Shown in pieces: positions 7,792-54,264 of a stretch of 64,000 nt of DNA (position 1 is its first letter; the number at the start of each line of letters is the position of its first letter). The translations under genes and the position numbers were made by a program. The notes below the pieces were generated by a model. The model had not been told where the DNA came from. It worked only from the letters and a program-made list of their open reading frames with translations, and did no database searches. The stretch comes from Balanoglossus misakiensis (Eukaryota > Animalia > Hemichordata): assembly GCA_040954595.2 (NCBI GenBank), contig CM082588.2:7341947-7405946 (forward strand). Direction: 5' to 3'.

Positions 7792-10700
7792 ATGGCAAAG
7801 GTGAAGAATCGTTTGTTGGTTGTCGGAGAGGAATGGTGGCCGAGAAGTCGCAATATTGCAACATGTCTTACTGAGAGACAATTGGCCATCGATCATGCTG
7901 ATGGAAACAACCAGGTTTACTTCATGGCGTTACAGGCTTCTGACAAAGAAGTTGAAGAAGCAAGGCGTCATGGAGTGGAGTTGATTCTCCCAATCAAAGA
8001 AGGGAAGCCGACAAGTGATTGGTTAATTTTACACGAACACTATTTTCAACAGTTAAAGAAATATCGCCCAATTACGACCATATACGGTACTGCTTGTAAG
8101 GATGGAACTGCCAGTACAGCAAAGAGTATTCAAGCGAAGGTTTTCCCATCTGCGGACTTCGTTCCTGTCTATTCTGACATACCGGAAAACATGAACCTCA
8201 ATCCTTCAGACTTGGCTGCTAAAGATGATGAAATGATGCAATATGCAGAGACGTCCTCTGTCATTATATCTGTTGGACCAACAGTACACGAGGAGTTGAA
8301 GATGAAGATTCGAGCTCTGCTAGACTCACAAGTGGAGAATGTTCTGTACATTCCTTGGATGAAGAAAGATGTAGACGAGATTTCGCTCAAGAAAAGAGAC
8401 TTAAAGACTGTTGAAGTCTTATCTGTGCACACAATATCAGACCTACAGGATCTGGAGGAATTCGAAACAGCAGCTCGAGGCATGGGGAAACTTGCTTACG
8501 CGTACAGTTATATTCCCAGAGACACAAAGTGGAAGTTCAAAGGATTTATAGCGTCAGATCCTGCGCAATGCAAAACGTGTAAGCAGAAGCTAGAGACGAT
8601 GGCTGAGTCAGATCAGTTAATTGTCAATCTATACCGAAACGACACACCAATAAACCAGTTAAAGAAAGACTTGAGGCAGTGTGACATCCTGGTAAACTTC
8701 ACAACTAAAGGCGACCCATTTGGTGTGATTGGTCTTCTATCCTGCGCTGCTGGTGTGCCCACTGTACAGCCAAGGCAATCAGGTCTTGCAAACTTCACAA
8801 AAGAACACTTCCCCTTACTCGGTGTACCATACTGTGACGTGGGACCAAACGAAAATGTCAAGAGCGGAAGTGAAAAGTGGGCACGTGCTGTCAATGGTAT
8901 CATAAGTGATTATGACCGTGCAAAGAATGCGGCACAAGAACTGAAGACGGCACTGCAAATATCTGCTGAGAATGGTGTTATTGCTGACCACCACAAGAAG
9001 CTTTTGAAAAGTGTACGTTGTCCTACAGAATGTGATGACCCTGCTGAAGAGCCTTCCAAAGGTAAGTGGTGATACATGAAAGAGACGATTAAGTACATGT
9101 TTTTATAGAAACATTATTCGATCCTTTTAACGAAACATAGTAAATCGCCATATTAGACATATTTTCCAATTTAAAAATTAACCGATGCAGCGTAGTGATA
9201 AAAGCATTTCAATACACAAAAGCTATTAAAAGTTTTACCAAAATCAATTTGCGCTTGAAGTGTTTATGTAGATTAAATGGAAAGGTGATGGTAAATTCTA
9301 ATACGTAATTTCACACCTGTCACTAGGGGAAAAGAAAACATTTCCTTACAAAGGACAACAAGCTTTGAATTCCGGTAGCAGCCAAACCGAAAAGCAAGTC
9401 CAAGATGTCCCTAGCAACAACGGGTCCAAAAATGGTGATCTGAATAATGGTGAAGGTGGCCAGCAAAATCCTGACAGTGGACAGACGCATGAAGTTCAAC
9501 ACTCAGTCAACTCGAATCTGGGTAAGGGTGCTGATTGGGTACATTTGTACGCCTAGTGAAAATTACTCGTCTGTCCTTATAAAACAATATTCATACAATA
9601 TTCAAACTGAAAACCAAATGAAATGGTTCTCGTGGCCCCAGCACAGAAGATAATGCACGGAACTATAGTTGCTCACATTCACTCGTCCCTGTATACTACT
9701 TATTGTATCGTTCGTCATATAATTTGATGATGCATTTGCCAATATATGATGTAGAATACAGTTGTGTAATGAAACAAAATGAGGTTTGAATTAAGAACAT
9801 ATTTGTACTCGAGGATGTCTCTCTTCATGTTGAGCAATGGAAACGTTCGTTTATGCGTTTGTTTGTTTGTTTGTTTGTATTGTCTGTCTGGTGTATGTGT
9901 TTGTGTTTAGATCAAGTGAATAGGGACTCGCTTAATTCTTATCTGGGCAATTAAAACATCCATTGCGGATGTGGATTTTGTCTTTGAAATTTTGTGATAG
10001 GTCTTGCTTCGAATCCTGTACAACACATGTCAATTCTAATACATTGTACTCATTGTATGTTATTTCAGGGGAAATAGTAGTCAAGCTTAAGGTGTCTGGT
10101 CCAACCTTGACTCCAGACCAGGTTGAACTCATCGAAAATGAGATAATCAACAACAGCAGCTCTGAAAACGATTTACCAAAAGTCAAAGAGCATCTCAACA
10201 GTGTGGGAAACATACAAATTGAAGAAATTAAGCGGGGTAGTGTAAATGTTGTATTGACTTGCCAGACATCAAAGTCAGTGGAGAGACTATGGCGTGACTA
10301 CAGGCAAGGGATACTGGGAGATCTGTTTAAGGCAGACATGATCACACCCGAATTGCTCCACAAACTCAATGTATCTGACGTTAACCTGAAGACAACCATA
10401 GAGACATGGAGATATCAACTATGTCTGGCAGAATTGAAGTACTTCAAGGAAGGCAAGTCTAATAGTTTAACAATGTAGTTATTGTTGCCGAACATTGTGT
10501 ATTCGTTTGAATTGAAGGATTTTACCTGAAACATTTGGTTATTTCCATTTCCAGACTCATGTCTGCGTTGTGTCTTTGTCGTACTTTCTATTTGTACACT
10601 CACGTTCTTATGGATCATTGTCAAAATTGCAAATGCGTTCAACGATATATGTCATGACGATTTCGTCACTTTAATTATTATAGGCTATGTACCGGAAGTG

Positions 10701-13700
10701 AAATCTTCTGAGGTCTGTGGTTTATGTGGAGAAAAGTGTACAGAACTTGGAGAGATGTTGACTAAACAAGGTAATTACTATTTATGGATGGCAGCATTTG
10801 GCAAGAATTATTTTTCAAGTTGAGTGTTTCTGTGACTGCTTTTGTTTCTAGCTGACAGGCCATGAGTTTAAAGATTTTTTTCATTGGCACTTAAGAATTC
10901 AATCAGAAGAAAAAAATACTGTTGAAAAATTCTCTTTTATGAGAATGCATATCATTTATTGAGCCTTTCTCTGCGTCGTTTGTGAATGTAGATGACAAGA
11001 GCGCAGTTGTTGCCGTGGAGACTGACAGGTCTGTCTATGCCACACGCCAAAACAGAATCGGTTTATCAAAACTACTTGGTGGTTCCGGCACTTTGGAAGC
11101 TGAGATAGATGTTGATGTGGGAGACACACAGACACCAATCGTATTGTTGATAAAAATACAGCGCCCTCTACAGTTGTCTTCGTTGATGGATGAACGGCCA
11201 GAAGTTCTTGGTGTCCTTGGAATCAGACGGTGTTTGATTTTGGATAGCCAACAGTTGTCTTCGATCACCTTACAAGAGGGAGAGACATTCAGATATGATA
11301 GAGAAGGTTAGTGTTCACAAACATTTAGGCAGGGAAGTTGGTCAAACAATACTATATTCAACGAATCAAAACAAATAAGCTTGCTGCTGAAATTTGTTCT
11401 ACAGGGAATGTTTTGGTTTAGTTGGCTGCTTGTTGTAGTATGATTCTAAAGATAGGTCTGTACTATTTTCGCATTGATTTGCACATCGAGCGAAAATTAA
11501 AATAGATAGTGCCCATTTATTTGCATTTCACGACCTCCGACCCAATTGCAAAGGGGGTTACATCATATCAATCATATATATAACATTTTGCTACAATGTT
11601 AAATCACATTTTCATCAGAACTGAAGAGACTTGTCAATCAAAGTGGCGTCAACATCTTGAAAACTGGCACCAAAGAATCGGACAAGATTCTGGCGGAATC
11701 TTTTTCAAAAGAAGGAGCTGCTCGTGTTTTGGAACCAATCTCGACAGACAACTATCTCTCTGTCATCACTTCGCTCTTTAACGAAATCAAGGAGATTAGA
11801 GAACTACTACAATCCAAGAAGATGGAATATACGATCCTTAAGGGGAAAAGTGAAGAAAGTGAGCAGTCACATGAGCTTCTGAAGAAAATGATGGAAAGCA
11901 GTGAAACTCAAAGTTCCAAACTACTCACGACAAATACCAAGCTGAAAGACAACATCCGACAGTTACATCAGACTATCGATGAACTTCAGGAAACAAAAAC
12001 TGCAATTGCGCCACCTGTAGACAAAAACATCGAAGGTAATGCAGTTATCTGCAACATATCCATCCATCCATTATATCATCTCCTCCAAATAAACAAAATA
12101 TGCTCCCAACAAGTTCAATTATAGGCCGTATTTATTTTCTATTACAATCTTGTGTCCAGGAGCAAAAGTGAATTTCCGAGTTCGGTCTGAAAAACTTCCC
12201 CTTCTTTTCCGCAATTGACATTCCTTGCAAAATGATTATACATGGTCCGGCATATTTATTTTACAACTAAATTTTTAGTTTGCGTCACTTTCAACTGATT
12301 TTCCCAAGGGAATATCGTTTCAATAAACTCGATCAATATTGACGCCGGATATTTTGGTTGTTTTAGTTTCTTTTGGGAGACACTTTACGCTCTGGCGCTA
12401 ACTAATATTTCATTCACTCAACTCAACACTCTCACAGAATGTTGGAATACCATAATTAAAAAGCTTTTTTTTTCAATAGACCAATCTCAATTTAAAATTA
12501 AAATCATGAAATCAGTTTATAACCCAAATTGTTTTTACTATTCAATAGAATTTTCGTTTACACACAAACCGGAATTGAAGCATACAGCAAAGTCCTATGA
12601 AGAAATACTGCAGAGATTTCCCTGCCATTTTACCTGGAAACTCGAAGAATTTTGTGACAAGAGTTTTGAGGTGAGGATATTTATTTGCATTATTTGCATT
12701 TGAAGTACAGGTTTGTGAAATTTTAAAGCATTTCATAACAGCTGTATCTGAATTGTTGAAATGTCACGAAAACCAAGGAAATTTTTATTTCTCTCAGATG
12801 TTAATAATGACGCAAATTGAATTATAAAAAGCAACATGCTGAATATCCACTTTTTGCATCATTTAAAGTGTAATATTTAAAAATTTGTCAATCATTAGAG
12901 TTTTCTTCATCAATCACATCTTCTTATTTCATTCCAATCATGCGTCTGATGTTTTCACACACAGGTATTTTATTAATTGGAAGGTGGCTATAAACGATAA
13001 ATCAGTAGCTTAGACGATCTCACGATATTGCGTCATACGACAAGTTCGAGCCTATACCCCACTGACACATAAGGAGATTTCTTTATCTGTTTATGTTTCA
13101 GTAGGGTATAGGCCCGAACATAGCGCGAGCGCTCCTATGACGTGAAATCGGGAGATATTATCGTTTTTAGCTACCTTTATTACAATCAATAAAATACCAA
13201 CATATCATCTGTACAAGCACCTGGGTTTTCACATGACACTGTAACATGCCTTTCCATGTACTGTAGGTCTTACAGAGCAGATTGGACGACAGACTTAAAT
13301 ATCACAACCAGGCGTTCTCTCCAGTTCCCCATAAAGCTATGGAAGGTTACCTGTACGTGTCCAAACTGAGATCAGAAGACAAGAGAGATCCAAGCGCCGC
13401 TTTGAAGTGGTTTGATGACGCCCTCACCGACAACCAGAAAGAACTCGACAGCTGTGATGGTGACGACGATGGTCCACTTGGTGATAAGTTGGTTCTTCTT
13501 GCAGATAAAGCATGGGTTCATTTCATGTCGGGTGAGATGAAAAGAGTTGATGAAACACTGAAGTTGATAGCAACTTTGTCACTTGATAAATTGTCAGGGA
13601 AAGAGAAAGCGTATGTATATGCTCACAAGGGTGTCTCTCTTGCTTATTTTGTCAAGAAAACGTGTGATGAGGGAGTTGATAGCTTTGATCGTGCTTTAGT

Positions 13701-14478
13701 AGAACTTCCAGAACAAACAGATTGGCTGTTTTGGCAAGCACTTGTCCTTTTACAAAAACGTGATCGTGTCTGTATAGATTCAAAATGTAAGGAAGCTTTA
13801 CAAATAATGGCACAAGAAAGAAATTTGCTTGAGAGAGTTCTTAAGAAAAATGCCCATCACAGCTATGCTTTGGCGCTTTTAAGTGACCTGTCACTCAATG
13901 AAGGTCGCTATGAAGAAGCAGGTCAACTCACCCAGAAAGCACTCGAATTAACCCCTTTATCCCATTTCGTGGTGGATTCTGCATATCTTTATTACTGCCA
14001 CAGCAATGTTGGAGACTTCGAAAAAGCACTGCAAGTTATTCACAATGCTGCAGCACAAGATCCAGACAATCCATTTATCGCGTGGAACCTAGGAGTCACA
14101 TACGTGACCAAATACCGACGCAATCCGATAGAAAGCAATCGTCAGTGCCTGTTAAAAGCCATAGAGTGTTTCGACAAAGCAGTTGCATATGCAGGTGGTT
14201 TGTATCCCGACGCTTCTCTCCAGAAGGCCCGTGCCCTCAGATACTTGAAACAGTACAGTGATGCATATGAAATATATACCCATCTGATCAGCACCCTCCG
14301 TGACCCATGTTACATACTATGGGCATGTTATGGTCTTGCCTTGGTTTACCAAGCACAAGATGACTCTGCCAAAGCACTGAAATACCTAAACATAACAGAA
14401 GCCTGTGGTCAGGAGTATTGCTGGGGCAAGCATGCACTGGAGTACAAAGCAAGCTTATCTGAACAGAAAAAGAACTAA
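7792..14478 (+). CDS. Copy 1: GT4-like / TRADD-N-like / coiled-coil / IFIT-like TPR multidomain protein (~1333 aa)
   Basis: Exons 7792-9061, 9327-9521, 10069-10452 (GC donor), 10684-10770, 10992-11306, 11619-12035, 12549-12670, 13267-14478 join in frame (4002 nt). Motifs: DPFGVIGLLSCAAGVP (GT-B); RGSVNVVLTCQTSKSVERLWRDYRQGIL (TRADD-N-like); PCHFTWKL plus TPRs (IFIT-like). An acceptor AG at 7788-7789 implies an upstream exon. Confidence 0.85.
12964..13198. mobile_element. Fold-back MITE in intron 7, shared by all three copies (also ~25197-25433 and ~44512-44747)
   Basis: ggtattttatt...aataaaatacc termini with a nested internal palindrome gttcg(a/g)gcctataccccactgacacataa...ttatgtgtcagtggggtataggcccgaac. 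Confidence 0.7.
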
Positions 14479-16550: not shown

Positions 16551-16719
16551 CTAGTCACACGTAATAACTTACGCCAGTATTTGATCTGAGACGTTTCAGA
16601 ACTGTCTTAATGGTGTGTGTGTGACCCACATATATTCTTGTGTGCGTATGAGATAAAAAAACAAAGCAAAACAATACAATCTTCAATTATGATAAAATTT
16701 TATTAGGCAAACATGTCTG

Positions 16720-16939: not shown

Positions 16940-17005
16940 CTGATGAAAGAATTAAGGATTTTCAACAGGGATTCTTACACGAAGTTAAATTCTCTGTACC
17001 TTAAA

Positions 17006-19958: not shown

Positions 19959-22900
19959 ATGGCAAAGGTGAAGAATCGTTTGTTGGTTGTCGGAGAGGAG
20001 TGGTGGCCGAGAAGTCGCAATATTGCAACATGTCTTACTGAGAGACAATTGGCCATCGATCATGTTGATGGAAACAACCAGGTTTACTTCATGGCGTTAC
20101 AGGCTTCTGACAAAGAAGTTGAAGAAGCAAGGCGTCATGGAGTGGAGCTGATTCTCCCAATCAAAGAGGGGAAGCCGACAAGTGATTGGTTAATTTTACA
20201 CGAACACTATTTTCAACAGTTAAAGAAATATCGCCCAATTACGACCATATACGGTACTGCTTGTAAGGATGGAACTGCCAGTACAGCAAGGAGTATTCAA
20301 GCGAATGTTTTCCCATCTGCGGACTTCGTTCCTGTCTATTCTGACATACCGGATAACATGAACCTCGGTCCTTCAGAATTGGCTGCTAAAGATGATGAAA
20401 TGATGCAATATGCAGAGACGTCCTCTGTCATTATATCTGTTGGACCAACAGTACACGAGGAATTGAAGATGAAGATTCGAGCTCTGCTAGACTCACAAGT
20501 GGAGAATGTTCTGTACATCCCTTGGATGAAGAAAGATGTAGACGAGATTTCGCTCAACAAAAGAGACTTAAGTAAGACTATTGAAGTCTTATCTGTGCAT
20601 ACGATTTCAAACCTACAAGATCTGGAGGAATTCGAAGCAGCAGCTCGTGGCATGGAGAAAGTAGCTAAGATTTACAGTTATTTTCACAGAGAAATAAAGT
20701 GGAAGTTCAAAGGACTGTTAGTGTCTACACCATGTAAGAAGATTCAGCAGCAGCTGGAGACGATGGCGAAGTCAGATTGGTTAGTCATCAATTTATACCC
20801 AAACGACACATCGATAGACCAGTTAAAGAAAGATTTGAGGCAGTGTGACATCCTGGTAAACTTCACAACTAAAGGCGACCCATTTGGTGTGATTGGTCTT
20901 CTATCCTGCGCTGCTGGTGTGCCCACTGTACAGCCAAGGCAATCGGGTCTTGCAAACTTCACAAAAGAACACTTCCCCTTATTTGGTGTACCATACTGTG
21001 ACGTGGGACCAAAGGAAAATGTTGACAGCGGAAGTGAAAAGTGGGCACGTGCTATCATGGAGATTCTGAGTGAATATGGTCGCGCCAAGAAAACATCACA
21101 GGAATTGCAGTCAGCACTCCACAAATCGGCAGAGGATGGTGTTATATCTGACAACCAAACGAAACTCATGGGTTGTGTTGCTTGTCCTGGGGATTGTGTC
21201 GATCCTGTAGAAGAGCCCCCCAAAGGTAAATACAATGCAATAAATAGATAGAAGGGTAACAGATAACAGAATCACGTGTTGCCAGTTAACGGCTACGCAA
21301 AATATCTTCGTTAAAGAGAATCAAAACAGTGTAATAAATGATGGTCAGCTTAAGAATTAAAACAGCTGTTGAGTGAATTGATATTCTGTTTTATTAATTA
21401 AATTACAGCTAAAATCAAATTTTGTAAGTTGTAGTATTTTTATTATGCGCTAGGTAAGGAGGAAACACTTAAAGACCAACAACCCAAGAATTCTGGTGGC
21501 AGCCAAGCAGAAAAGCAAGTCCAAGATGTCCCTAGCAACAACGGGTCCAAAAATGGTGATCTGAATAATGGTGAAGGTGGCCAGCAAAATCCTGACAGTG
21601 GACAGACGCATGAAGTTCAACACACTCTCAACTCGAATCTGGGTAAGGGTGCTGATTGGGTACATTTGTGCGCCTAGTGAAAATTACTTGTCTGTCATTA
21701 TAAAACAATATTCATACAATATTCGAACTGAAAACCAAATAAAATGGTTCACGTGGCCCCAGCACAGAAGCTAACGCACGGAACTATAGTTGCTCACATT
21801 CACTCGTCCCTGTATACTGGTTATTGTATCGTTCGTCAAATAATTGGATGATGCATTTGCCAATATATGATGTAGAATACAATTGTGTAATGAAACAAAA
21901 TGAGGTTTGAATTAAGAACATATTTGTACTCGAGGATGTCTCTCCACATGTTTAGCAATGGAAACGTTCGTTTATGCGTTTGTTTTGTGTTTTTGTTTGT
22001 TTGTTTGTTTGTTTGTTTGTTTGTTTGTTTGTGTTTGTTTGTTTGTTTGCTTGCTTGTTTGTTTGTTTGTTTGTTTGTTTGTTTGTATTGTCTGTCTGGT
22101 GTCTGTGTGTTGTGTTTAGATCAAGTGAATAGGGACTCGCTTAATTCTTATCTGGGCAATTAAAATATCCATTGCGGATGTGGATTTAATCAGTGAAATT
22201 GTGTGATAGGTCTTGCTTCGAATCCTGTACAACACATGTCAATTCTAATACAATGTACTCATTGTATGTTATTTCAGGGAAAATCGTAGTCAAGCTTAAG
22301 GTGTCCGGTCCACCCTTGACTCCAGACCAGGTTGAACTCATCGAAAACGAGATAATCAACAACAGCAGCTCTGAAAACGATTTACCAAAAGTCAAAGAGC
22401 ATCTCAACAGTGTTGGAAACATACAAATTGAAGAAATCAAGCGGGGCAGTCTGAATGTTGTATTGGCATGCCAGACATCAAAGTCAGTGGAGAGACTATG
22501 GCGTGACTACAGGCAAGGGATACTGGGAGATCTGTTTAAGGCGGACATGATCACACCCGAATTGCTCCACAAACTCAATGTATCTGACGTTCACCTGAAG
22601 ACAACCATAGAGACATGGAGATATCAACTATGTCTGGCAGAATTGAAGTACTTCAAGGAAGGTAAGTCTAATATTTTAACAATGTGGTTATTGTTGCCGA
22701 ACATTGTGTATTCGTTTGAATTGAAGGATTTTACCTGAAACCTTTGGTATATTTCCATTTCCAGACTCGTGTCTGTGATGTGTCTTTGTCAAACTTTCTA
22801 TTTGTACACCAACGTTCTTATGGATCATTGTCAAAATTGCAAATGCGTTCAACGATATATGTCATGACGATTTCGTCACTTTAATTATTATAGGCTATGT

Positions 22901-25900
22901 ACCGGAAGTGAAATCTTCTGAGGTCTGTGGTTTGTGTGGAGAAAAGTGTACAGAACTTGGAGAGATGTTGACTAAACAAGGTACAGTAATTACTATTTAT
23001 GGATGACAGCATTTGGCAAGAATTATTTTTCAAGTTGAGTATTTCTATGACTGCTTTTGTTTCTAGCTGGCAGGCCATGAGTTTGAAGATTTTTTTTCAT
23101 TAGCACTTAAGAATTCAACCAGAAGAAAAAATACTGTTGAAAAATACTCTTTTATGAGAATGCATATCATTTATTGAGACTTTCTCTGCGTCGTTTGTGA
23201 ATGTAGATGACAAGAGCGCGGTTGTTGCCGTGGAGACTGACAGGTCTGTCTATGCCACACGCCAAAACAGAATCGGTTTATCAAAACTACTTGGTGGTTC
23301 CGGCACTTTGGAAGCTGAGATAGATGTTGATGTGGGAGACACACAGACACCAATCGTCCTGATGATAAGAATACAGCGCCCTCTACAGTTGTCTTCGTTG
23401 TTGGATGAACGGCCAGAAGTTCTTGGTGTCCTGGGAATCAGACGGTGTTTGATTTTGGATAGTCAACAGTTGTCTTCAATCACCTTACCAGAGGGAGAGA
23501 CATTCAGATATGATAGAGAAGGTTAGTGTTCACAAACATTCCTTTTAACAGAAAAATCGTAGTGCAGGGAGTTTGGTCAAACAATACTCTATTCAACTAC
23601 ATTGTAATCAAAACAAATAAGCTTGCTGCTGTAATTGTTCTAAAGGGGTTTGATTTTAAAGGTAGGTCTGTACTATTCTCCCATTGATTTGCACATCGAG
23701 CATAAACTAAAAAAGATAGAGCCCATTTATTTGCATTCCACGGCCCCCGACACAATTGCAAAGGGGGTTAAATCGTATCGATCATATATAACATTTTGCT
23801 AACAATGTTGAATCACATTTTCATCAGAACTGAAGAGACTTGTCAATCAAGATGGCGTCAACATCTTGAACACTGGCACCAAAGAATCGGACAAGATTCT
23901 GGCGGAATCTATTTCAAAAGAAGGAGCTGCTCGTGTTTTGGAACCAATCTCGACAGACAACTATCTCTCTGTCATCACTTCGCTCTTTAACGAAATCAAG
24001 GAGATAAGACAACTACTACAATCCAAGAAGATGGAATATACAATCCTTAAGGGGAAAAGTGAAGAAAGTGAGCAGTCACGTGAGCTTCTGAAGAAAATGA
24101 TGGAAAGTAGTGAAACTCAAAGTTCCAAACTACTCACGACAAATACCAAGCTGAAAGACAACGTCCGACAGTTACGTCAGACGATCGATGAACTTCAGGA
24201 AACGAAAACTGCAACTGCGCCACCTGTAGACAAGAACATCGAAGGTAATGCAGTTATCTGCAACATATCTATCCATCCGTTGTATCATCTCCTCCAAATA
24301 AACAAAATATGCTCCCAACAAGTTCAATTATAGGCCGTATTTATTCTCTATTACAATCTTGTGTCCAGGAGCAAAAGTGAATTTCAGAGTTCGGTCTGAA
24401 AATCTCCCCCTTCTTTCCCGCAATTGACATTCCTTGCAAAATCATTATACATGTTCCGGCATTTTTATTTTACAACAAAATTTTTAGTTTGCGTCACTTT
24501 CAACTGATTTTCCCAAGGGAATATCGTTTCAATAAACTCGATCAATATTGACGCCGGATATTTTGGTTGTTTTAGTTTCTTTTGGGAGACACTTTACGCT
24601 CTGGCGCTTACTAATATTTCATTCACTCAACTCAACTCTCTCCCAAAATGTTGGAATACCATAATAAAAAAGCCCCTTTTTTAATGGAGCAATCTCAATT
24701 TAAAATTAAAATCATGAAATCAGTTTATAACCCAAATTGTTTTTACTATTCAATAGAATTTTCGTTTACACACAAAATGGAATTGAAGCATACAGCAAAG
24801 TCCTATGAAGAAATACTGAAGAGGTTTCCCTGCCACTTTACCTGGAAACTCGAAGAATTTTGTGATCATAGTTTAGAGGTGAGGACATTTATTTGCGTAT
24901 TTGAAGTACAGGTTTGTGAAATTTTAAAGCGTTTCATAACAGCTGTATCTGACTTGATGGAATTTCACAAAATTAAACACGGAAATGTTTGTCGAACTCC
25001 TATTCCACTCAGATGTTAATAATGACAGAAACTGTAACATAAGAAGCAACATGCTGAATATCCAGTTTTCGCATCATTTTAAAAAAATTGTCAATCATTT
25101 GTTGGCAAGTGAGTTAATGAGACCACCCTAGAGTTTTCTTCATCAATTAAATCTTCTTATCTCATTTAAATCATGCGTCTGATGTTTTCACAGACAGGTA
25201 TTTTATTAATTGGAAGGTGGCTAAAAACGATAAATCAGTAGCTTAGACGATCTCTCGATTTCGCCTTATAAGAGCTATGTTCGGGCCTATACCCCACTGA
25301 CACATAAAGAGATTTCTTTATCTGTTTATGTGTCAGTGGGGTATAGGCCCGAACATAGTGTGAGCGCTCGTATGATGTGAAATCGGGAGATCTTATCATT
25401 TTTAGCTACCTTAATTACAATCAATAAAATACCAACATAGCATCTGTACAAGCACCTGTATTTTCACATGACACTGTAACATGCCTTTCCATGTACTGTA
25501 GCTCTTACAGAGTGATTTGGACAACACCCTTAAATATCACAACCAGGAGTTCTCTCCAGTTCCCCATAAAGCAATGAAAGGTTACCTGTACATGTCCAAA
25601 CTGAGATCAGAAGACAAGAGAGATCCAAGTGTCGCTTTGAAGTGGTTTGATGACGCCCTCACCGACAACCAGAAAGAACTCGACAGCTGTGATGGTGACG
25701 ACGATGGTCCACTTGGTGATAAGTTGGTTCTTCTTGCAGATAAAGCATGGGTTCATTTCATGTCGGGTGAGATGGAGAGAGTTGATGAAACGCTTAAGTT
25801 GATAGCAACTTTGTCACTTGATAAATTGTCAGGGAAACAGAAAGCGTATGTATATGCTCACAAGGGTATCTCTCTGACTTATTTTGTCAAGAAAATGTGT

Positions 25901-26713
25901 GATGAGGGAGTTGATAGCTTTGATCGTGCTTTAGTAGAACTTCCAGAACAAACAGATTGGCTGTTTTGGCAAGCATTCTCTCTTTCACGAAAACGTGTTC
26001 GTGTCTGTATAGATTCAAAATGTCAGGAAGCTTTACAAATAATGGCACAAGAAAGAAATTTGCTTGAGAGAGTTCTTAAGAAAAATGCCCATCACGGCAA
26101 TGCTTTAGCACTTTTAAGTGACCTGTCACTCAATGAAGGTCGCTATGAAGAAGCAGGTCAACTCATCCAGAAAGCACCCGAATTAACCCCTTTATCCCAT
26201 TTCACGGTGGAGTATGCACGTCGTTATTACTGCCACAGCAATGTTGGAGACTTCGAGAAAGCACTGCAAGTTATTCACAATGCTGCGGCACAAGATCCAG
26301 ACAATCCATTTCTCGCGTTTAACCTAGGAGTCACATACGCGACCAAATACGAACACAATCCGATAGAAAGCAATCGTCAGTGCCTGCTAAAAGCCATAGA
26401 GTGTCTCGACAAAGCAGTTGCATATGCAGGTGGTTTGTATCCCTTTGCTTCTATCTTGAAGGCCGCTGCCCTCGCATACTTGAAACAGTACAGTGATGCA
26501 TGTGAAATATATACCCATCTGATCAGCACCCTCTCTGACCCATATCACATAATATGGGCATGTTATAATCTTGCCCTCGATTACCAAGAACAAGATGACT
26601 CTGCCAATGCACTGAAATACCTAAACATAACAGAAGCCTGTGGTCAGGAGTATTGCTGGGGCAAGCATGCACTGGAGTACAAAGCAAGCTTATCTGAACA
26701 GAAAAAGAACTAA
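19959..26713 (+). CDS. Copy 2: GT4-like / TRADD-N-like / coiled-coil / IFIT-like TPR multidomain protein (~1330 aa)
   Basis: Exons 19959-21225, 21454-21642, 22278-22661, 22894-22980, 23207-23521, 23828-24244, 24757-24878, 25502-26713; all GT-AG, in frame (3993 nt). Confidence 0.85.
21980..22086. repeat. (TTTG)n microsatellite
   Basis: Expanded relative to the paralogous tracts at ~9858-9877 and ~41349-41394. Confidence 0.9.
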
Positions 26714-33200: not shown

Positions 33201-36200
33201 ATATCTCAGCATCCAGAGCAGGTACAGCTCAGGTGTTTGGGTGGATGGGACCAAAATAAGAAGCCAAATTTAAGGCTCACCTGTGACACCTGCTCAACTC
33301 ATTAATTATGTGCATACCTAATTCCAGGCAAACCAATAGGGCTACAGGTCTGGTTTTTGTCGGACATGGACCAGTATGGGGTCAAATTTTTTCCCCAAAT
33401 TTTGGGTGACCTTGGGTGACCTTTGACCTACTTTCGCATATCTCAGCATCCAGAGCAGGTACAGCTCAGGTGTTTGGGTGGATGGGACCAAAATAAGAAG
33501 CCAAATTTAAGGCTCATCTGTGACACCTGCTCAACTCATTAATTATGTGCATACCTAATTCCAGGCAAACCAATAGGCTACAGGTCTGGTTTTTGTCGGA
33601 CATGGACCAGTATGGGGTCAAATTTTTTCCCCAAATTTTGGGTGACCTTGGGTGACCTTTGACCTACTTTCGCATATCTCAGCATCCAGAGCAGGTACAG
33701 CTCAGGTGTTTGGGTGGATGGGACCAAAATAAGAAGCCAAATTTAAGGCTCACCTGTGACACATGCTTAACTCATTAACTATGTGCATACCTAATTCCAG
33801 GCAAACCAATAGGGCTACAGGTCTGGTTTTTGTCAGACATGGACCAGTATGGGGACAATTTTTTTTCCCAAACTTTGGATGTCCTTGGGTGACCTTTGAC
33901 CTACTTTCACATATCTCGGCATCCAGAGCAGGTACAGCTTAGGTGTTTGGGTGGACGGGACCAAAATAAGAAGCCAAATTTTAGAGTCACCTGTGACACC
34001 TGCCTAACTCATTAATTATGTGCATACCTAATTCCAGGCAAACCAGTAGGGCTACAGATCTGGTTTTTGTTTGACATGGACCAGTATAGCGTAAACATTT
34101 TCTGCTCATATTAAGCGTGACCTCACGTGACCTTTGACCTACTTTTCCACATCTCAGCATCCACAGCACATACACCCTTGGCATTTGGAGTGATAGAACA
34201 ACTAATGCAGTAATTAAATATGCACAAATCTATCTCCAGGCGAACCAATAGGGCTAGTAGTGTCTCGAAACCCGCTTATTGCTGTTCACAGCTATATTTT
34301 TTTATTATTAGGGCCCAAGCGCATGCAGCGCTTGGGCCCTATTGGTATTATCCTGGTTTTTCTTCTTTTTTTTCTTGTGTAGTTTTTTCGGCCAATAGGA
34401 TCTTGAAAACGGCTGAACCTTCAAATTTCAAACTTGGCAAAATGGTGCAGGCCTATGAGAGCTGGTGCAGTACCCTTGTGAATGTTTAATTAGTCATGTG
34501 ACCTGTTGACCATATATGGGGAAAGTTTTCAAATGGGCCTAATTTGCATATGAATGGAGATATCAAAATTCTGTTAGGATACTTTGTGGACCATGTGGTC
34601 AGTGTCCAACATACCAAATATCAAGGCCGTGGGCCAAGTCTATTTTGAGAAGAAGACTTTTAAATATTATTAGTTTTTCATATTTTCGGACTAAGCCAAG
34701 GGCCTATACTGTATAGTTAAGCTATGACGCTATGTCCACGTCTGTGCAATGGTCCTGTACAGTGACTGTCTATTGGCCTGTAAGCAGAATGGGACCAAAA
34801 TAAAAGGCAAAATTTTTGGCTCACCTGTAACACCTGCTTAACTCATTAATTATGTGCATACCTAATTTTGGGCTAACTATTAGGGCTAGAGGTTTTGTTC
34901 TTGTGGAACATGGATCAGTATGGGGTCAAAAAAATTCGCCAAAATTTTGGGTGACCTCAGGTGACCTTTGACCTACTTTCCTATATCTCTGCATTCAGAG
35001 TAGGTACAGACTTGGCGTTTGGATGGTTGGGACTAAAATTGAAAAGCAAAAATTGGGGGTCACCTGTGGCACCTGCTTATCTCATTAATTATGTGCATAC
35101 CTAATTTTCGGCTAACTATTAGGGCTAGAGGTTTTGTTCTTGTGGAACATGGACAAGTATGGGGTCAAAAAAAGTTTGCCCAAATTTTGGGTGACCTCAA
35201 GTGACCTTTGACCTACTTTCCTATATCTCTGCATTCAGAGCAGGTACAGACTTGGCGTTTGGAGGGTTGGGACTAAAATTGAAAAGCCAAAATTGGGGGT
35301 CACCTATGACACCTGCTTATCTCATTAATTATGTGCATACCTAATTCAGGGATAACTAATAGGGCTACAGGTTTTGTTCTTATTGGACATGGACCAGTAT
35401 AGGGTCAAAATTTCTTGCCCAAATTTTGGGTGACCTCAGGTGACCTTTGACCTACTTAACCATATCTCAGCATCCAGAGCAAGTACAGCCTTGGCGTTTG
35501 GAGGGATGGGTTGAAAATGAAAAGTGAAATTATTAAGTCACCTGTAACACCTGGTGAACTCATTAATTATGTGCATACCTTATTCCAGACTAACCAATAG
35601 GGTTAGAGGTTTGATTTTTGTTGAACATGGACCAGTATGGGGTCAAAATTTCTTGCCCAACTTTTGGGTGATGACATATGACCTTTGACCTTCGGCTTAA
35701 GCTTGGGCCCGTCATCGCTGCTTGCAGCTATATTTATTATTATTATTCTTCTTCCCACTTTTAAAAACAGCCGCTATTCGAAGACCGTTGCACCCAATGA
35801 CTTGAAATTTGGCTCATAGGTAAAACTCAAAGCAAGTAATTTTTTGATCATGTCACTATGGCAACAGGTCACATGACCTGGCAGCCATCTTGGATTTAAA
35901 CTTTTAAATTGGTCTAATTTGCATAAAAAATGAAGAATCCAAATTCTGTTCAGAAACTTTGTGGACCATATGGCCAGGGTCCTATATGCCAAATTTCAAT
36001 GTCTAAGTCCTTGCCGATTTTGAGGAGATGATTTTTAAAGCATTATTTTTCATATTTTCCATGACCATTGGACCCAGCCATTGGCCTATACTTTCCATGG
36101 TTAAGCAATGGCCCCCTAGGATTTTAGATTTATGCCCAATATCTCAACATCCGCTGGGCTGATCAGCTTCAAATTTTGTGTGCAGCTAGCCTACCTTCCG

Positions 36201-37647
36201 ACAATCAGTTCCAACTGGAAAAAATAATATGGAAAATCGACCGATTTTTTTATATTAATTTTTTTATGAAATCTATACCTATACTTATTCCACTATACTT
36301 AAGCTATGGCCACATAGTTTTGTAGAATTCTGGTCGGTGCAATAGTCTGCAGCATAGAACCAAAATAAGAAGCCAAATTTAAGGCTCACCTGTGACACCT
36401 GCTCAACTCATTAATTATGTGCATACCTAATTCCAGGCAAACCAATAGGGCTACAGGTCTGGTATTTGTCGGACATGGACCAGTATGGGGTCAAATTTTT
36501 TCCCCAAATTTTGGGTGACCTTGGGTGACCTTTGACCTACTTTCGCATATCTCAGCATCCAGAGCAGGTACAGCTCAGGTGTTTGGGTGGATGGGACCAA
36601 AATAAGAAGCCAAATTTAAGGCTCACCTGTGACACCTGCTCAACTCATTAATTATGTGCATACCTAATTCCAGGCAAACCAATAGGGCTACAGGTCTGGT
36701 TTTTGTCAGACATGGACCAGTATGGGGTCAAATTTTTTCCCCAAATTTTGGGTGACCTTGGGTGACCTTTGACCTACTTTCGCATATCTCAGCATCCAGA
36801 GCAGGTACAGCTCAGGTGTTTGGGTGGATGGGACCAAAATAAGAAGCCAAATTTAAGGCTCACCTGTGACACCTGCTTAACTCATTAACTATGTGCATAC
36901 CTAATTCCAGGCAAACCAATAGGGCTACAGGTCTGGTTTTTGTCGGACATGGACCAGTATGGGGTCAAATTTTCCCCCCAAATTTTGGGTGACCTTGGGT
37001 GACCTTTGACCTACTTTCGCATACCTCAGCATCCAGAGCAGGTACAGCTTAGGTGTTTGGGTGGATGGGACCAAAATAAGAAGCCAAATTTAAGGCTCAC
37101 CTGTGACACCTGCTTAACTCATTTACTATGTGCATACCTAATTCCAGGCAAACCAATAGGGCTACAGGTCTGGTTTTTGTCGGACATGGACCAGTATGGG
37201 GACAATTTTTTTTCCCAAACTTTGGATGTCCTTGGGTGACCTTTGACCTACTTTCACATATCTCGGCATCCAGAGCAGGTACAGCTTAGGTGTTTGGGTG
37301 GATGGGACCAAAATAAGAAGCCAAATTTTAGAGTCACCTGTGACACCTGCCTAACTCATTAATTATGTGCATACCTAATTCCAGGCAAACCAGTAGGGCT
37401 ACAGGTCTGGTTTTTGTTTGACATGGACCAGTATAGCGTAAACATTTTCTGCTCATATTAAGCGTGACCTCACGTGACCTTTGACCTACTTTTCCACATC
37501 TCAGCATCCACAGCACATACACCCTTGGCATTTGGAGTGATAGAACAACTAATGCAGTAATTAAATATGCACAAATCTATCTCCAGGCGAACCAATAGGG
37601 CTAGTAGTGTCTCGAAACCCGCTTATTGCTGTTCACAGCTATATTTA
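30299..37647 (+). mobile_element. Head-to-tail array of non-autonomous Helentron/HINE-like elements with an internal ~237-bp satellite
   Basis: Type-A units ~30418-32380, ~32381-34300, ~35734-37647 and a type-B unit ~34308-35733. 5' palindrome gggtttcgagac..gtctcgaaaccc (three times at 30300-30450), (TTA)n tracts, five 237-bp repeats per A unit, 3' subterminal IR gtctcgaaaccc plus stem-loop gctgttcacagc then tatattt. Unit B has gggcccaagc/gcttgggccc and ~240-bp related repeats. Confidence 0.75.
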
Positions 37648-38932: not shown

Positions 38933-39283
38933 TTGTAACACACCAAACACGGAATTATATCAAGACGGGGCAACAATACCGGGCAGAAACCGATCGAACT
39001 GATGCCCTAGAGAACAGTTCGAAATGACTAAGGTCACGTGATGGCATTTTGACGAATCACGATCGAGGGTTCACTGCATGGTGTGTTATATTCCACTGTT
39101 TCGGCGAATCCGAAATATTACCACTCACTCGGAGCTTTGTGAGACAGACAGTCCACCGAGTAGCAGGCCAACGAGTCTGCAGCAATAATGATTGTACCTT
39201 CCATAGCATTCCTCTTTCTATGAGCCGTGGAAATATTCCCCGATAACTCTATAAACACGAACATATTTTATTCTCAATTAGAA

Positions 39284-42200
39284 ATGGCAAAGGTGAAGAA
39301 TCGTTTGTTGGTTGTCGGAGAGGAGTGGTGGCCGAGAAGTCGCAATATTGCAACATGTCTTACTGAGAGACAATTGGCCATCGATCATGCTGATGGAAAC
39401 AACCAGGTTTACTTCATGGCGTTACAGGCTTCTGACAAAGAAGTTGAAGAAGCAAGGCGTCATGGAGTGGAGCTGATTCTCCCAATCAAAGAGGGGAACC
39501 CGACAAGTGATTGGTTAATTTTACACGAACACTATTTTCAACAGTTAAAGAAATATTACCCAATAACGACCATATACGGTACTGCTTGTAAGGATGGAAC
39601 TGCCAGTACAGCAAGGAGTATTCAAGCGAATGTTTTCCCATCTGCGGACTTCGTTCCTGTCTATTCTGACACACCAGGAAACATGAACCTAGATCCTTCA
39701 GACTTGGCTGCTAAAGATGATGAAATGCTGGAATATGCAGAGACGTCCTCTGTCATTTTATCCGTTGGACCAACAGTACATGAGGAGTTGAAGATGAAGA
39801 TTCGAGCTCTGCTAGACTCACAAGTGGAAAATGTTCTGTACATCCCTTGGATGAAGAAAGATGTAGACGAGATTTCGCTCAAGAAAAGAGACTTAAAGAC
39901 TGTTGAAGTCTTATCTGTGCACACGATATCAGACCTACAGGATCTGGAGGAATTCGAAGCAGCAGCTCGAGGCATGGGGAAACTTGCTTACGCGTACAGT
40001 TATATTCCCAGAGACACAAAGTGGAAGTTCAAAGGATTTATAGCGTCAGATCCTGCGCAATGCAAAACGTGTAAGCAGAAGCTAGAGACAATGGCTGAGT
40101 CAGATCAGTTAATTGTCAATCTATACCCAAACGACACACCAATAAACCAGTTAAAGAAAGACTTGAGGCAGTGTGACATCCTTGTAAACTTCACAACTAA
40201 AGGCGACCCATTTGGTGTGATTGGTCTTCTATCCTGCGCTGCTGGTGTGCCCACTGTACAGCCAAGGCAATCAGGTCTTGCAAACTTCACAAAAGAACAC
40301 TTCCCCTTACTCGGTGTACCATACTGTGACGTGGGACCAAACGAAAATGTCAAGAGCGGAAGTGAAAAGTGGGCACGTGCTGTCAATGGTATCATAAGTG
40401 ATTATGACCGTGCAAAGAATGCGGCACAAGAACTGAAGACGGCACTTCAAATATCTGCTGAGAGTGGTGTTATTGCTGACCACCACAAGAAGCTTTTGAA
40501 AAGTGTACGTTGTCCTACAGAATGTGATGACCCTGCTGAAGAGCCTTCCAAAGGTAAGTGGTGATACATGAAAGAGACGATTAAGTACATGTTTTTATAG
40601 AAACATTATTCGATCCTTTTAACGAAACATAGTAAATCGCCATATTAGACATATTTTCCAATTTAAAAATTAACCGATGCAGCGTAGTGATAAAAGCATT
40701 TCAATACACAAGAGCTATTAAAAGTTTTACCAAAATCAATTTGCGCTTGAAGTGTTTATGTAGATTAAATGGAAAGGTAATGGTAAATTCTAATACGTAA
40801 TTTCACACCTGTCACTAGGGGAAAAGAAAACATTTCCTTATAAAGGACAACAAGCTTTGAATTCCGGTAGCAGCCAAACCGAAAAGCAAGTCCAAGATGT
40901 CCCTAGCAACAACGGGTCCAAAAATGGTGATCTGAATAATGGTGAAGGTGGCCAGCAAAATCCTGACAGTGGACAGACGCATGAAGTTCAACACTCAGTC
41001 AACTCGAATCTGGGTAAGGGTGCTGATTGGGTACATTTGTACGCCTAGTGAAAATTACTCGTCTGTCCTTATAAAACAATATTCATACAATATTCAAACT
41101 GAAAACCAAATGAAATGGTTCTCGTGGCCCCAGCACAGAAGATAATGCACGGAACTATAGTTGCTCACATTCACTCGTCCCTGTATACTACTTATTGTAT
41201 CGTTCGTCATATAATTTGATGATGCATTTGCCAATATATGATGTAGAATACAGTTGTGTAATGAAACAAAATGAGGTTTGAATTAAGAACATATTTGTAC
41301 TCGAGGATGTCTCTCTTCATGTTGAGCAATGGAAACGTTCGTTTATGCGTTTGTTTGTTTGTTTGTTTGTTTGTTTGTTTGTTTGTTTGTTTGTATTGTC
41401 TGTCTGGTGTATGTGTTTGTGTTTAGATCAAGTGAATAGGGACTCGCTTAATTCTTATCTGGGCAATTAAAACATCCATTGCGGATGTGGATTTTGTCTT
41501 TGAAATTTTGTGATAGGTCTTGCTTCGAATCCTGTAAAACACATGTTAAAATACAATGTACTCATTGTATGTTATTTAATTTCAGGGGAAATCGTAGTCA
41601 AGCTTAAGGTGTCCGGTCCAACCTTGACTCCAGACCAGGTTGAACTCATCGAAAATGAGATAGTCAACAACAGCAACTCTGAAAACGATTTACCAAAAGT
41701 CAAAGAGCATCTCAACAGTGTTGGAAACATACAAATTGAAGAAATCAAGCGGGGCAGTCTGAATGTTGTATTGGTATGCCAGACATCAAAGTCAGTGGAG
41801 AGACTATGGCGTGACTACAGGCAAGGGATCCTGGGAGATCTGTTTAAGGCAGACATGATCACACCCGAATTGCTCCACAAACTCAATGTATCTGACGTTA
41901 ACCTGAAGACAACCATAGAGACATGGAGATATCAACTATGTCTGGCAGAATTGAAGTACTTCAAGGAAGGCAAGTCTAATAGTTTAACAATTTAGTTATT
42001 GTTGCCGAATATTGTGTATTCGTTTGAATTGAAGGATTTTACCTGAAACCTTTGGTATATTTCCATTTCCAGACTCGTGTCTGTGATGTGTCTTTGTCAA
42101 ACTTTTCAATTGTACACTCACGTTCTTATGGATCAATGTTAACATTGCAAATGCGTTCAACGATATATGTCATGACGATTTCGTCACTTTAATTATTATA

Positions 42201-45200
42201 GGCTATGTACCGGAAGTGAAATCTTCTGAGGTCTGTGGTTTGTGTGGAGAAAAGTGTACAGAACTTGGAGAGATGTTGACTAAACAAGGTAATTACTATT
42301 TATGGATGACAACATAGGGCAAGAATTATTTTTCAAGTTGAGTTTTTCTGTGACTGCTTTTGTTTCTAGCTGGCAGGCCATGAGTTTGAAGATTTTTTTC
42401 ATAGGCACTTAAGAATTCAACCAGAAGAAAAATACGGTTGAAAAATACTCTTTTATGAGAATACATATCATTTATTGAGCCTTTCTCTGCATCATTTGTG
42501 AATGTAGATGAGAAGAGCGCGGTGGTTGCCGTGGAGACTGACAGGTCTGTCTATGCCACACGCCAAAACAGAATCGGTTTATCAAAACTACTTGGTGGTT
42601 CCGGCACTTTGGAAGCTGAGATAGATGTTGATGTGGGAGACACACAGACACCAATCGTATTGTTGATAAAAATACAGCGCCCTCTACAGTTGTCTTCGTT
42701 GTTGGATGAACGGCCAGAAGTTCTTGGTGTCCTTGGAATCAGACGGTGTTTGATTTTGGATAGCCAACAGTTGTCTTCGATTACCTTACCAGAGGGAGAG
42801 ACATTCAGATATGATAGAGAAGGTTAGTGTTCACAAACATTCCTTTTAACAGAAAAATCGTAGTGCAGGGAGTTTGGTCAAACAATACTCTATTCAACTA
42901 CATTGTAATCAAAACAAATAAGCTTGCTGCTGTAATTGTTCTAAAGGGGTTTGATTTTAAAGGTAGGTCTGTACTATTCTCCCATTGATTTGCACATCGA
43001 ACATAAAGTAAAATAGATAGAGCCTATTTATTTGCATTCCACGACCTCCGACCCAATTGTAAAGGGGGTTACATCGTATCGATCATATATAACATTTTGC
43101 TAACAATGTTGAATCACATTTTCATCAGAACTGAAGAGACTTGTCAATCAAGATGGCGTCAACATCTTGAACACTGGCACCAAAGAATCGGACAAGTTTC
43201 TGGCGGAATCTATTTCAAAAGAAGGAGCTGCTCGTGTTTTGGAACCAATCTCGACAGACAACTATCTCTCTGTCATCACTTCGCTCTTTAACGAAATCAA
43301 GGAGATTAGACAACTACTTCAATCCAAGAAGATGGAATATACGATCCTTAAGGGGAAAAGTGAAGAAAGTGAGCAGTCACGTGAGCTTATGATCGAAATG
43401 CTGGAAAGCAGTGAAACTCAAAGTTCCAAACTACTCACGACAAACACCAAGCTGAAAGACAACATCCGACAGTTACGTCAGACTATCGATGAACTTCAGG
43501 AAACGAAAACTCCAACTGCGCCACCTGTAGACAAAAACATCGAAGGTAATGCAGTCATCTGCAACATATCCATCCATCCGTTGTATCATCTCCTCCAAAT
43601 AAAAAAAATGTGCTCCCAACAAGTTCAATTATAGGCCGTATTTATTTTCTATTACAATCTTGTGTCCAGGAACAAAAGCGAATTTCAGGGTTCGGTCTGA
43701 AAACCTTCCGTTTCACTTTGTTTTTTCCCCTTTTTCCTGTAAGTGACATTCCTTGCAAAATGATTATACTTAACATGGTCCGGCATATCTATTTTACAAC
43801 TAAATTTTTAGTTTGCGTCACTTTCAACTGTTTTTCCCAAGGGAATATCGTTTCAATAAACTCGATCAATATTGACGCCAGATATTTTGGTTGTTTTAGT
43901 TTCTTTTGGGAGACACTTTACGCTCTGGCGCTTACTAATATTTCATTCACCGGTAACCGTTGAAATAACTTAACTCTCTCCCAGAATGTTGGAATACCAT
44001 AATAAACAAAAACTTTTTTCAATGGAGCAATCTCAATTTAAAATTAAAATCATGAAATCAGTTTATAACCCAAATTGTTTTTACTATTCAATAGAATTTT
44101 CGTTTACACACAAAACGGAATTGAAGCATACAGCAAAGTCCTATGAAGAAATACTGCAGAGGTTTCCCTGCCACTTTACCTGGAAACTCGAAGAATTTTG
44201 TGACTGGAGTTTTGAGGTGAGGACATTTATTTGCGTATTTGAAGTACAGGTTAATGAAATTTAAAAGCGTTTCATAACAGCGGCATCTGACTTGATGGAA
44301 TTTCACAAAAAAGACACGGAAATGTTTGTATATGTCGAACTCCTATTCCACTCAGATGTTAATAATGACAGAAACTGTAACATAAAATGCAACATGCTGA
44401 ATATCCAGTTTTCGCATCATTTTGAGATGAGATGAGACCACCCTAGAGTTCTCTTCATCAATCAAATCTTCATATTTCATTCCAATCATGCGTCTGATGT
44501 TTTCACACACAGGTATTTTATTAATTGGAAGGTGGCTATAAACGATAAATCAGTGGCTTACACGATCTCCCGATTTCGCGTCATACGACAAGTTCAAGCC
44601 TATGCCCCACTGACACATAAAGAGATTTCTTTATCTGTTTATGTGTCAGTGGGGTATAGGCCCGAACATAGTGCGAGCGCTCATATGACGTGAAATCGGG
44701 AGATCTTATCGTTTTTAGCTACCTTAATTACAATCAATAAAATACCAACATAGCATCTGTACAAGCACGTGTGTTTTCACATGACACTGTAACACGATTT
44801 TCCATGTACTGTAGTTCTTACAGTGTTATGCGGACAACCACCTTAAACATCACAACCAGGCGTTCTCTCCAGTTCCCCATAAAGCTATCAAAGGTTACCT
44901 GTACGTGTCCAAACTGAGATCAGAAGACAAGAGAGATCCAAGCGCCGCTTTGAAGTGGTTTGATGACGCCCTCACCGACAACCAGAAAGAACTTGACAGC
45001 TGTGATGGTGACGACGATGGTCCACTTGGTGATAAGTTGGTTCTTCTTGCAGATAAAGCATGGGTTCATTTCATGTCGGGTGAGATGGACAGAGTTGATG
45101 AAACGCTTAAGTTGATAGCAACTTTGTCACTTGATAAATTGTCAGGGAAACAGAAAGCGTATGTATATGCTCACAAGGGTGTCTCTCTTGCTTATTTTGT

Positions 45201-46026
45201 CAAGAAAACGTGTGATGAGGGAGTTGATAGCTTTGATCGTGCTTTAGTAGAACTTCCAGAACAAACAGATTGGCTGTTTTGGCAAGCATTATCTCTTTCA
45301 CAAAAACGTGATCGTGTCTATGGAAGTTCAAAATGTAAGGAAGCTTTACAAATAATGGCAAAAGAAAGAAATTTGCTTGAGAGAGTTCTTAAGAAAAATA
45401 CCCATCACAGCTATGCTTTGGCACTTTTAAGTTACCTGTCAGTCAATGAAGGTCGCTATGAAGAAGCAGGTCAACTCATTCAGAAAGCACTCGAATTAAC
45501 CCCTTTATCCAATTTCGTGGTGCCTTATGCACGTCATTATTACTGCCACAGCAATGTTGGAGACTTCGAAAAAGCACTGCGAGTTGTTCACATTGCTGCA
45601 GCACAAGATCCAGACAATCCATTTTTCGCATGTTACCTAGGAGTCACATACGCGACCAAATACGAACACAATCCGATAGAAAGCAATCGTCAGTGCCTGC
45701 AAAAAGCCATAGAGTGTTTCGACAAAGCAGTTGCATATGCAGGTGGTTTGTATCCCATTGCTTCTCTCTGGAAGGCCGTTGCCCTCACAAACTTGAAACA
45801 GTACAGTGATGCATGTGAAATATATACCCATCTAATCAGCACCCTCTCTGACCCATATCGCATACTAAATGCATGTTATAATCTTGCCGACACTTACCGA
45901 GCACAAAATGACTCTGCCAATGTACTAAAATACCTAAACATAACAGAAGCCTGTGGTCTGGAGTATTCCTTGGGCAAGTGTGCACATAAGGACAAAGCAA
46001 GGTTATCTGTACAGAAAAAAAAATAA
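39284..46026 (+). CDS. Copy 3: GT4-like / TRADD-N-like / coiled-coil / IFIT-like TPR multidomain protein (~1333 aa)
   Basis: Exons 39284-40553, 40819-41013, 41586-41969 (GC donor), 42202-42288, 42508-42822, 43129-43545, 44095-44216, 44815-46026; in frame. Confidence 0.85.

Positions 46027-54233: not shown

Positions 54234-54264
<31 letters not shown>

Follow-up and report, generated by a model that had tools for sequence, protein, structure and literature searches.

What does an IFIT clamp do when it is carried at the end of a much larger protein, behind modules of immune type? The question is raised by a locus of the acorn worm Balanoglossus misakiensis (GCA_040954595.2, contig CM082588.2, positions 7,341,947 to 7,405,946 of the forward strand). 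The window, by which we mean the whole 64,000-nucleotide stretch that was analysed, contains three tandem copies of a ~7-kb gene, 89–92% identical in pairwise comparison over long stretches. A sequence-only reading had taken each copy to encode a candidate undescribed innate-immune receptor in which GT4-like and TRADD-N-like parts are joined through a coiled coil to an IFIT-like sensor of RNA 5’ ends. Our analysis leads to a modified picture. The predicted products of three intact paralogues combine an IFIT clamp with a GT4 fold and a likely TRADD-N domain, and we regard it as an evenly balanced possibility that they act in the cytosol as immune sensor-adaptors, with a clamp that has moved from fixed RNA-end binding to the binding of variable, paralogue-specific ligands. 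They are likely fast-diversifying sensors and not ordinary RNA-end binders, because the RNA-gripping residues are mostly gone and the groove differs between the copies.

Gene structure and evidence for a fused protein

The eight coding exons of copy 1 join into 4002 nt that encode 1333 residues and end in a single terminal stop. Copy 2 (19959..26713, plus strand; exons 19959–21225, 21454–21642, 22278–22661, 22894–22980, 23207–23521, 23828–24244, 24757–24878 and 25502–26713) and copy 3 (39284..46026, plus strand; exons 39284–40553, 40819–41013, 41586–41969, 42202–42288, 42508–42822, 43129–43545, 44095–44216 and 44815–46026) likewise splice openly, into 1330 and 1333 residues, so that all three genes are intact. 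The splice model is in silico throughout and all three proteins are predictions. The exon phases (1,1,1,1,1,1,0) are the same in every copy, all 21 acceptors are AG and 19 of 21 donors are GT. The exon-3 donor reads GC in copies 1 and 3, and its position is supported by the GT found at the equivalent site of copy 2. The expected splicing of separate open reading frames, with consistent phases, into one protein of ~1330 residues was thus borne out, and the two junctions named for it (12035/12549 and 12670/13267), like the motifs quoted from its last exons, are exact.

A search with exon 8 among longer proteins, in which 7996 candidates were scored, gave eight matches, and the top three are hemichordate RefSeq models that also carry the GT4-conflict domain. 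The Glandiceps talaboti protein XP_077977119.1 (1613 residues) is 42% identical across 94% of the exon 8 query and holds GT4, TRADD-N-like and TPR parts in a single predicted model. The Ptychodera flava gene models XP_070569242.1 and XP_070568966.1 combine GT4 with the opening part of the IFIT domain; both stop early in the TPR part, and one runs into a second GT4 start. All three hemichordate models align domain by domain with the spliced window proteins, and among the IFIT-like relatives that we retrieved GT4 or TRADD-N occurs only in P0001–P0003. Open in-phase splicing in all three copies, together with hemichordate models that join the same parts, supports the proposal that the GT4, TRADD-N-like and IFIT parts form one fused protein per gene, at the level of predicted products.

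The C-terminal clamp is an IFIT-family domain

In copy 1 the IFIT-family domain starts in exon 7 (12549..12670, plus strand), which carries the CHFTW motif, and exon 8 (13267..14478, plus strand) supplies the remainder of the TPR clamp, including its hypervariable groove positions. The CHFTW-type N-terminal motif is followed by the co-linear IFIT order of TPRs. With the Glandiceps protein as query, the best natural match is IFIT5 (residues 7–365, E 4e-10), and IFIT5 is also the best natural match of a profile (residues 8–402, co-linear, E 2.6e-11), where only four designed TPRs score higher. When the profile was confined to the N-terminal half, it returned 14 matches, nine of which are IFIT chains. 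We also compared an AlphaFold model of exon 8 only, made from a 5-row alignment (predicted local distance difference test, pLDDT, 74.9). In Foldseek its template-modelling (TM) score by query is 0.58–0.67 for IFIT1/5 and at most 0.48 for non-IFIT rows, and in VIA-align ranks 1–12 are all IFITs (Z 22.2–23.9, 324–357 residues aligned, root-mean-square deviation 5.5–7.3), followed by LGN with Z 20.6 over 241 residues. The Atlas comparison placed IFIT clusters first (0.97) with TTC22 close (0.96), and its recognition value lay under the Atlas bar.

The N-terminal-half profile was also run against 1.84 billion representatives and gave 100 matches, among which 20 new ones were named. IFIT-like proteins from the hemichordates Ptychodera, Glandiceps and Saccoglossus are among them, as are others from five echinoderms, hagfish, an ostracod, a fish and a bird. 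None of the ~30 vertebrate-side IFIT-like rows in this search has the TTC22 motif. A quick tree of 76 rows left out 16 generic TPR matches, nine fragments, P0002 and P0009; a careful tree used 28 chosen rows, with the root set by hand and no TTC22 rows. In the 28-row tree the window proteins belong to a hemichordate clade (99/98) whose neighbour is an echinoderm group (93/90), and a 100/100 branch separates this side from the vertebrates, so that the tree follows hemichordates, echinoderms and vertebrates. Because the IFIT5 profile match is co-linear, structure ranks 1–12 are IFITs and the tree follows species groups, we conclude that the C-terminal part is an IFIT-family domain and not a generic TPR, as the sequence-only reading had held.

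Several relatives are of interest in their own right. The hagfish Eptatretus has an IFIT-like protein (P0064/P0139) that groups with jawed-vertebrate IFITs, and the ostracod Darwinula has a tandem IFIT-like protein (P0080) on a long branch. Antedon P0098 (XP_071956018.1) combines an IFIT-like domain with a C-terminal caspase domain (PF00656, E 1.7e-60). A C-terminal extension of ~300 residues is common to the IFIT-like proteins P0042, P0043, P0046, P0050, P0075, P0085, P0088, P0090 and P0091. It spans hemichordate and echinoderm-side proteins, with cross-group blastp values down to 2e-21, and has no match in Pfam or PADLOC. In the three sequences that we read, an N-x-x-K-H motif lies near its end, which is reminiscent of HEPN RNases, and the proteins that carry it could possibly be IFIT plus nuclease sensor-effectors.

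Loss of phosphate-binding residues and diversification of the groove

We took 17 IFIT5 RNA-contact residues from published work (PMC9677429, Table 3, and PMC3950709) and mapped them by hand via alignments; the sites that vary between the copies were already known before the groove was mapped. At the five phosphate-binding columns (K150, R186, R253, K257 and R260) copies 1, 2 and 3 are basic at 0, 2 and 0 positions, and the mean is 3.7 on the echinoderm side (25 rows, 5 named), 3.6 on the vertebrate side (29 rows, 2 named) and 1.6 among other hemichordates (seven rows). K150 is replaced by Tyr, R253 by Asp, Glu or Pro, and R260 by Ser. The net charge over all 17 contact columns is 0, −1 and −1, compared to about +5 in relatives, and the whole IFIT domain of the window copies is acidic (−4 to −16).

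The contact positions are also where the copies differ. Thirteen of the 17 vary between copies, compared to 70 of 402 other positions (p 4e-7), and with the other possible register of the first helix the count is 11 of 17 (p 5e-5). The proportion of nonsynonymous differences (pN) in groove codons is 0.33–0.40 (0.20–0.30 in the other register) against a synonymous proportion (pS) of 0.05–0.07, and elsewhere in exon 8 pN is 0.05–0.08. For exon 8 overall, the ratio of nonsynonymous to synonymous rates (dN/dS) is 0.92–1.63. Most of the IFIT5 phosphate-binding residues are therefore lost, and amino-acid change is in excess at the groove. These two features make the RNA-sensor step doubtful, and the proposal that the IFIT part reads RNA 5’ ends in the manner of IFIT1/5 is not supported.

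The best-surviving alternative, which we consider rather unlikely, is that the clamp still binds RNA 5’ ends, with a cap or end specificity that has shifted in each paralogue, and that this binding triggers the N-terminal modules. The fold is truly that of an IFIT and the ancestry probably so, the basic residues are kept in echinoderm-side relatives, copy 1 has an Arg at the position of IFIT5 T37 and IFIT1 R38, copy 2 has Arg at R186 and K257, and specificity is reported to differ among mammalian IFIT1 paralogues (PMC4887208). However, the replacements at K150, R253 and R260 and the absence of a net positive charge at the contact columns of an acidic domain argue against it; K150 and R260, with T37 and K257, are described as required for 5’-triphosphate binding in IFIT5 (PMC3950709).

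A conserved GT4 domain with degenerate catalytic motifs

Exon 1 (7792..9061 in copy 1, plus strand; residues 1–423) encodes a GT4-conflict glycosyltransferase-fold domain with degenerate catalytic motifs. The GT4-like assignment proposed for it is secure: PF20706 scores 103–108 bits in all three copies against a cut-off of 26 (copy 1, 107.8 bits, E 7.9e-31). PDB sequence searches with the GT4 domain gave no match. The predicted fold of the N-terminal 984 residues of a Ptychodera homolog is of low confidence (pLDDT 47), and this model yields only GT-B matches, with Z up to 10.1, plus weak Foldseek rows.

All six GT4 sequences examined have D-x7-L or D-x7-M in place of EX7E, and the N-terminal glycine-rich loop is absent from the window copies. 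The domain is nevertheless under purifying selection between copies (dN/dS 0.27–0.41). It is thus a conserved domain but likely not a standard transferase, judged from its sequence, and with the motifs degenerate the catalytic effector that had been envisaged is left unsupported. An improbable alternative starts from exactly this role: the variable clamp would grab an invader molecule that an active GT4 then glycosylates, with TRADD-N as just a linker or regulator. Kaur 2021 (PMC8195603) indeed suggests that GT4 acts as an effector by modifying molecules of the invader, and the match is full length (profile positions 1–373 of 385) in a domain that selection has kept. The altered EX7E motif and the missing loop speak against activity, as both elements are reported to be crucial in the GT4-type enzyme ALG2 (10.1101/2025.10.15.682550).

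The central exons

Exon 3 (10069..10452, plus strand), which ends at the GC donor, encodes a likely TRADD-N-like domain. Its match to PF20694 (TRADD-like_N) scores 19.9 bits with E 6.6e-4 in copy 1, below the Pfam cut-off of 23.7, and P0001 matches the same family at E 2e-3, again below the cut-off. The exon 3 region is 35–44% identical to its counterpart in the three hemichordate models, and the pLDDT-47 homolog model shows a ferredoxin-like order of strands and helices with a weak Foldseek match to the TRADD-N structure 1f3v (E 0.09). Exon 3 is therefore likely a TRADD-N adaptor domain; homologs and fold order agree with the assignment made earlier, and the Pfam score does not reach the level that would secure it.

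Exon 5 (10992..11306, plus strand) encodes an alpha/beta domain that has no Pfam match. It is conserved in hemichordate relatives (34–45% in blastp) and duplicated in the Glandiceps model, and an Atlas fold hint (TM 0.41) falls below the Atlas bar. A second TRADD-N was considered and rejected after a negative profile-profile comparison (prob 0.1%), and we leave the exon unnamed. Exons 3 and 5 are both under purifying selection between copies (dN/dS 0.13–0.55).

The remaining exons are a polar low-complexity linker (exon 2, 9327..9521, plus strand), a 29-residue mini-exon with a CxxC pair that is identical in all three copies (exon 4, 10684..10770, plus strand) and a helical segment with a predicted coiled coil (exon 6, 11619..12035, plus strand). 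The many weak coiled-coil matches of exon 6 in Pfam fit the coiled coil that had been anticipated. Neither NACHT nor another STAND NTPase was matched by Pfam in the scanned exons or in the full Glandiceps model.

A proposed mechanism and its alternatives

If the three proteins are diversifying sensors, the groove would bind a fast-changing, pathogen-derived ligand, more probably a protein or peptide than a 5’-triphosphate. Ligand binding might then cluster the proteins through the coiled coil, and clustering could expose TRADD-N and recruit downstream immune or death signalling partners. GT4 would serve as a non-catalytic or altered module for binding or scaffolding.

A number of results weigh against this interpretation. 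Exon 8 alone, searched with phmmer against the PDB, gave 15 matches, designed TPRs and BBS4, with no IFIT among them, so that the motif-bearing exon 7 and a profile are needed for recognition. In Foldseek three generic TPRs rank first by E-value. The PF20694 match of exon 3 lies below the cut-off in all three copies (E 6e-4 to 3e-3). The excess of dN over dS for exon 8 overall is marginal (p 0.71, 0.048 and 0.064), the rates come from only three closely related copies with mosaic similarity, and some groove positions are basic in single copies, so that RNA binding may persist. Among the database models, P0009 and P0041 hold the back half only, with the parts split, and P0002 looks mis-joined. 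Finally, no canonical interferon-stimulated response element (ISRE) lies upstream of any copy, GAAANNGAAA being absent from the three upstream regions. One ISRE match in intron 3 of all copies was set aside as uninformative.

It is very improbable, in our judgement, that the fusion is produced by faulty gene prediction or reflects a duplicate in decay, with GT4 made alone, the TPR part a separate or relaxed gene and the variation neutral. Such a view can draw on an exon-1 frame that stops 9 nt into the intron, on an exon 8 dN about equal to the divergence of intron 7 (0.07–0.10), on the models without GT4 (P0041 and P0009), on a shared upstream region that copy 3 does not have and on splicing that is modelled in silico. 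Against it stand the absence of any stop or frameshift in three times 4 kb, the conservation of splice sites and phases across the copies, internal exons that lack their own start and evolve under purifying selection, the concentration of changes in the groove and a full fused model in Glandiceps. The least credible alternative is a scaffold with no immune role, such as a TPR adaptor in development or housekeeping: TPRs are general scaffolds, no ISRE was found upstream and the genes nearby encode a zinc-finger protein, an M50 peptidase and a C-type lectin, but recent tandem expansion, groove-focused diversification and the origin of both flanking modules in conflict or immune families all oppose it.

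Comparison with known systems

Animal NLRs place an adaptor or effector in front and a variable repeat sensor behind, and expand in tandem. The window proteins have the same layout, with no NACHT/STAND NTPase in the Pfam scan and with an IFIT clamp as the repeat.

The closest published platform is that of Kaur 2021 (PMC8195603), which describes GT4 plus TRADD-N proteins whose C-termini vary, from hemichordates, amphioxus and cnidarians, and places them among predicted immune systems, in agreement with the immune context that had been suggested for this locus. Proteins of the DEDD2 clade have GT4 ahead of TRADD-N and then a variable C-terminal module, an order that the window proteins share if exon 3 is the TRADD-N it probably is. 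The three tandem copies, whose nearest relatives are hemichordate, also fit the pattern of lineage-specific expansion in a marine invertebrate. The source data of that study list ‘GT4-GTase+TRADDN-DEDD2+TPRs’ for at least eight Branchiostoma proteins of 1131–1607 residues. The fused TPRs are called TTC28-like there, one Branchiostoma protein is so named, and the main text never mentions IFIT. Its Saccoglossus rows (30/35 places) have Bcl-2, LRR or ankyrin ends and not TPRs.

The clamp itself resembles the jawed-vertebrate proteins IFIT5, IFIT1 and IFIT2 (PDB 3zgq, 4hor, 5udi and 4g1t) in its CHFTW start, in the co-linear TPR order over ~400 residues and in the clamp. Vertebrate IFITs are described as stand-alone, almost wholly single-exon and ISRE-driven (PMC3688568), whereas the window genes are fused and have eight coding exons. 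In the window proteins the domain follows 900 extra residues, is split by an intron, and is without the last repeats and most of the phosphate-binding residues. Its nearest relatives, in one clade, are hemichordate and echinoderm IFIT-like proteins that are unfused at the N-terminus (for example XP_077997910.1, XP_006812281.1 and KAJ8032837.1). These proteins start with the IFIT domain; many carry the ~300-residue C-terminal extension and one a caspase, and those on the echinoderm side retain a basic groove, unlike the window copies.

The best-ranked matches of a search of the open literature describe neither an IFIT–GT4 or IFIT–TRADD-N fusion nor invertebrate IFIT orthologues, and a term search of a 2026 IFIT review (PMC13197388) returned no mention of invertebrates. 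The label ‘undescribed’ is thus only partly apt. We found no published account of the IFIT identity of the fused part, of its lost RNA grip or of the diversification of the groove; the coarse architecture of GT4, TRADD-N and TPRs is already partly listed, with the amphioxus TPRs known here by table label only, and RefSeq automatically names unfused hemichordate relatives ‘IFIT-like’.

The family-wide study of Liu et al. 2013 restricts IFITs to jawed vertebrates and dismissed its acorn-worm candidates, which grouped with FKBP4 (PMC3688568). The IFIT-family proteins recovered here come from hemichordates of three genera, from echinoderms and from hagfish, and many of them have extensions of effector type; they speak against a jawed-vertebrate origin. 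In a broader scheme, to which we give somewhat less than even odds, IFITs are at least of deuterostome age and were at first sensor modules coupled to effectors. A single clamp would then have been captured in acorn worms by a GT4/TRADD-N platform, and diversifying selection would have made it a variable surface for antigen binding, giving an NTPase-free, NLR-like receptor family for changing pathogen ligands. The window would represent a further step, in which an immune adaptor employs the clamp as a binding surface that diversifies. Its three proteins, nearly identical outside the groove, form a set for probing IFIT-fold recognition beyond RNA ends, and offer a means to ask what role the GT4/TRADD-N platform plays.

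Copy history and surroundings of the locus

Copies 1 and 3 differ by less than 1% through intron 2 (7750–10000 compared to 39243–41500) and are 5–10% apart downstream. This mosaic would be explained by recent gene conversion or a chimeric copy 3, and pairwise rates are blurred by either origin. Each copy has an inverted-repeat element in intron 7 (12964–13198, 25197–25433 and 44512–44746), likely a miniature transposon that predates the duplications. Between copies 2 and 3, at 30465–37647, lie three ~1.9-kb units that are 98–99% identical, on a 237–240-bp tandem repeat.

Upstream of copy 1 we propose a candidate non-coding first exon (6380..6441, plus strand; left end approximate), with a donor after 6441 that has its counterpart at 18076 in copy 2. 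The AG acceptor 2 nt ahead of the ATG makes such an exon likely, and the conserved donor fits. An upstream coding exon was rejected, as the candidate is interrupted by an in-frame stop and the proteins of homologs begin at the equivalent position. Upstream of its ATG, copy 3 has only ~49 bp in common with copies 1 and 2, and since their upstream region is absent there it may use another promoter or none.

Head-to-head with copy 1 is a C2H2 zinc-finger gene (4764–5391, minus strand), which presumably resembles MTF1 and may have a common promoter region with copy 1. Synteny with the vertebrate IFIT locus is not apparent from the three neighbours. On the far side of the array are M50 peptidase exons (52161–54825, minus strand), which we take to be site-2-protease-like, and exons of a multi-domain C-type lectin gene (57000–63000, plus strand). 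A short open reading frame at 3602–3925 (minus strand) looks like the C-terminal end of a LINE (long interspersed nuclear element) reverse-transcriptase protein.

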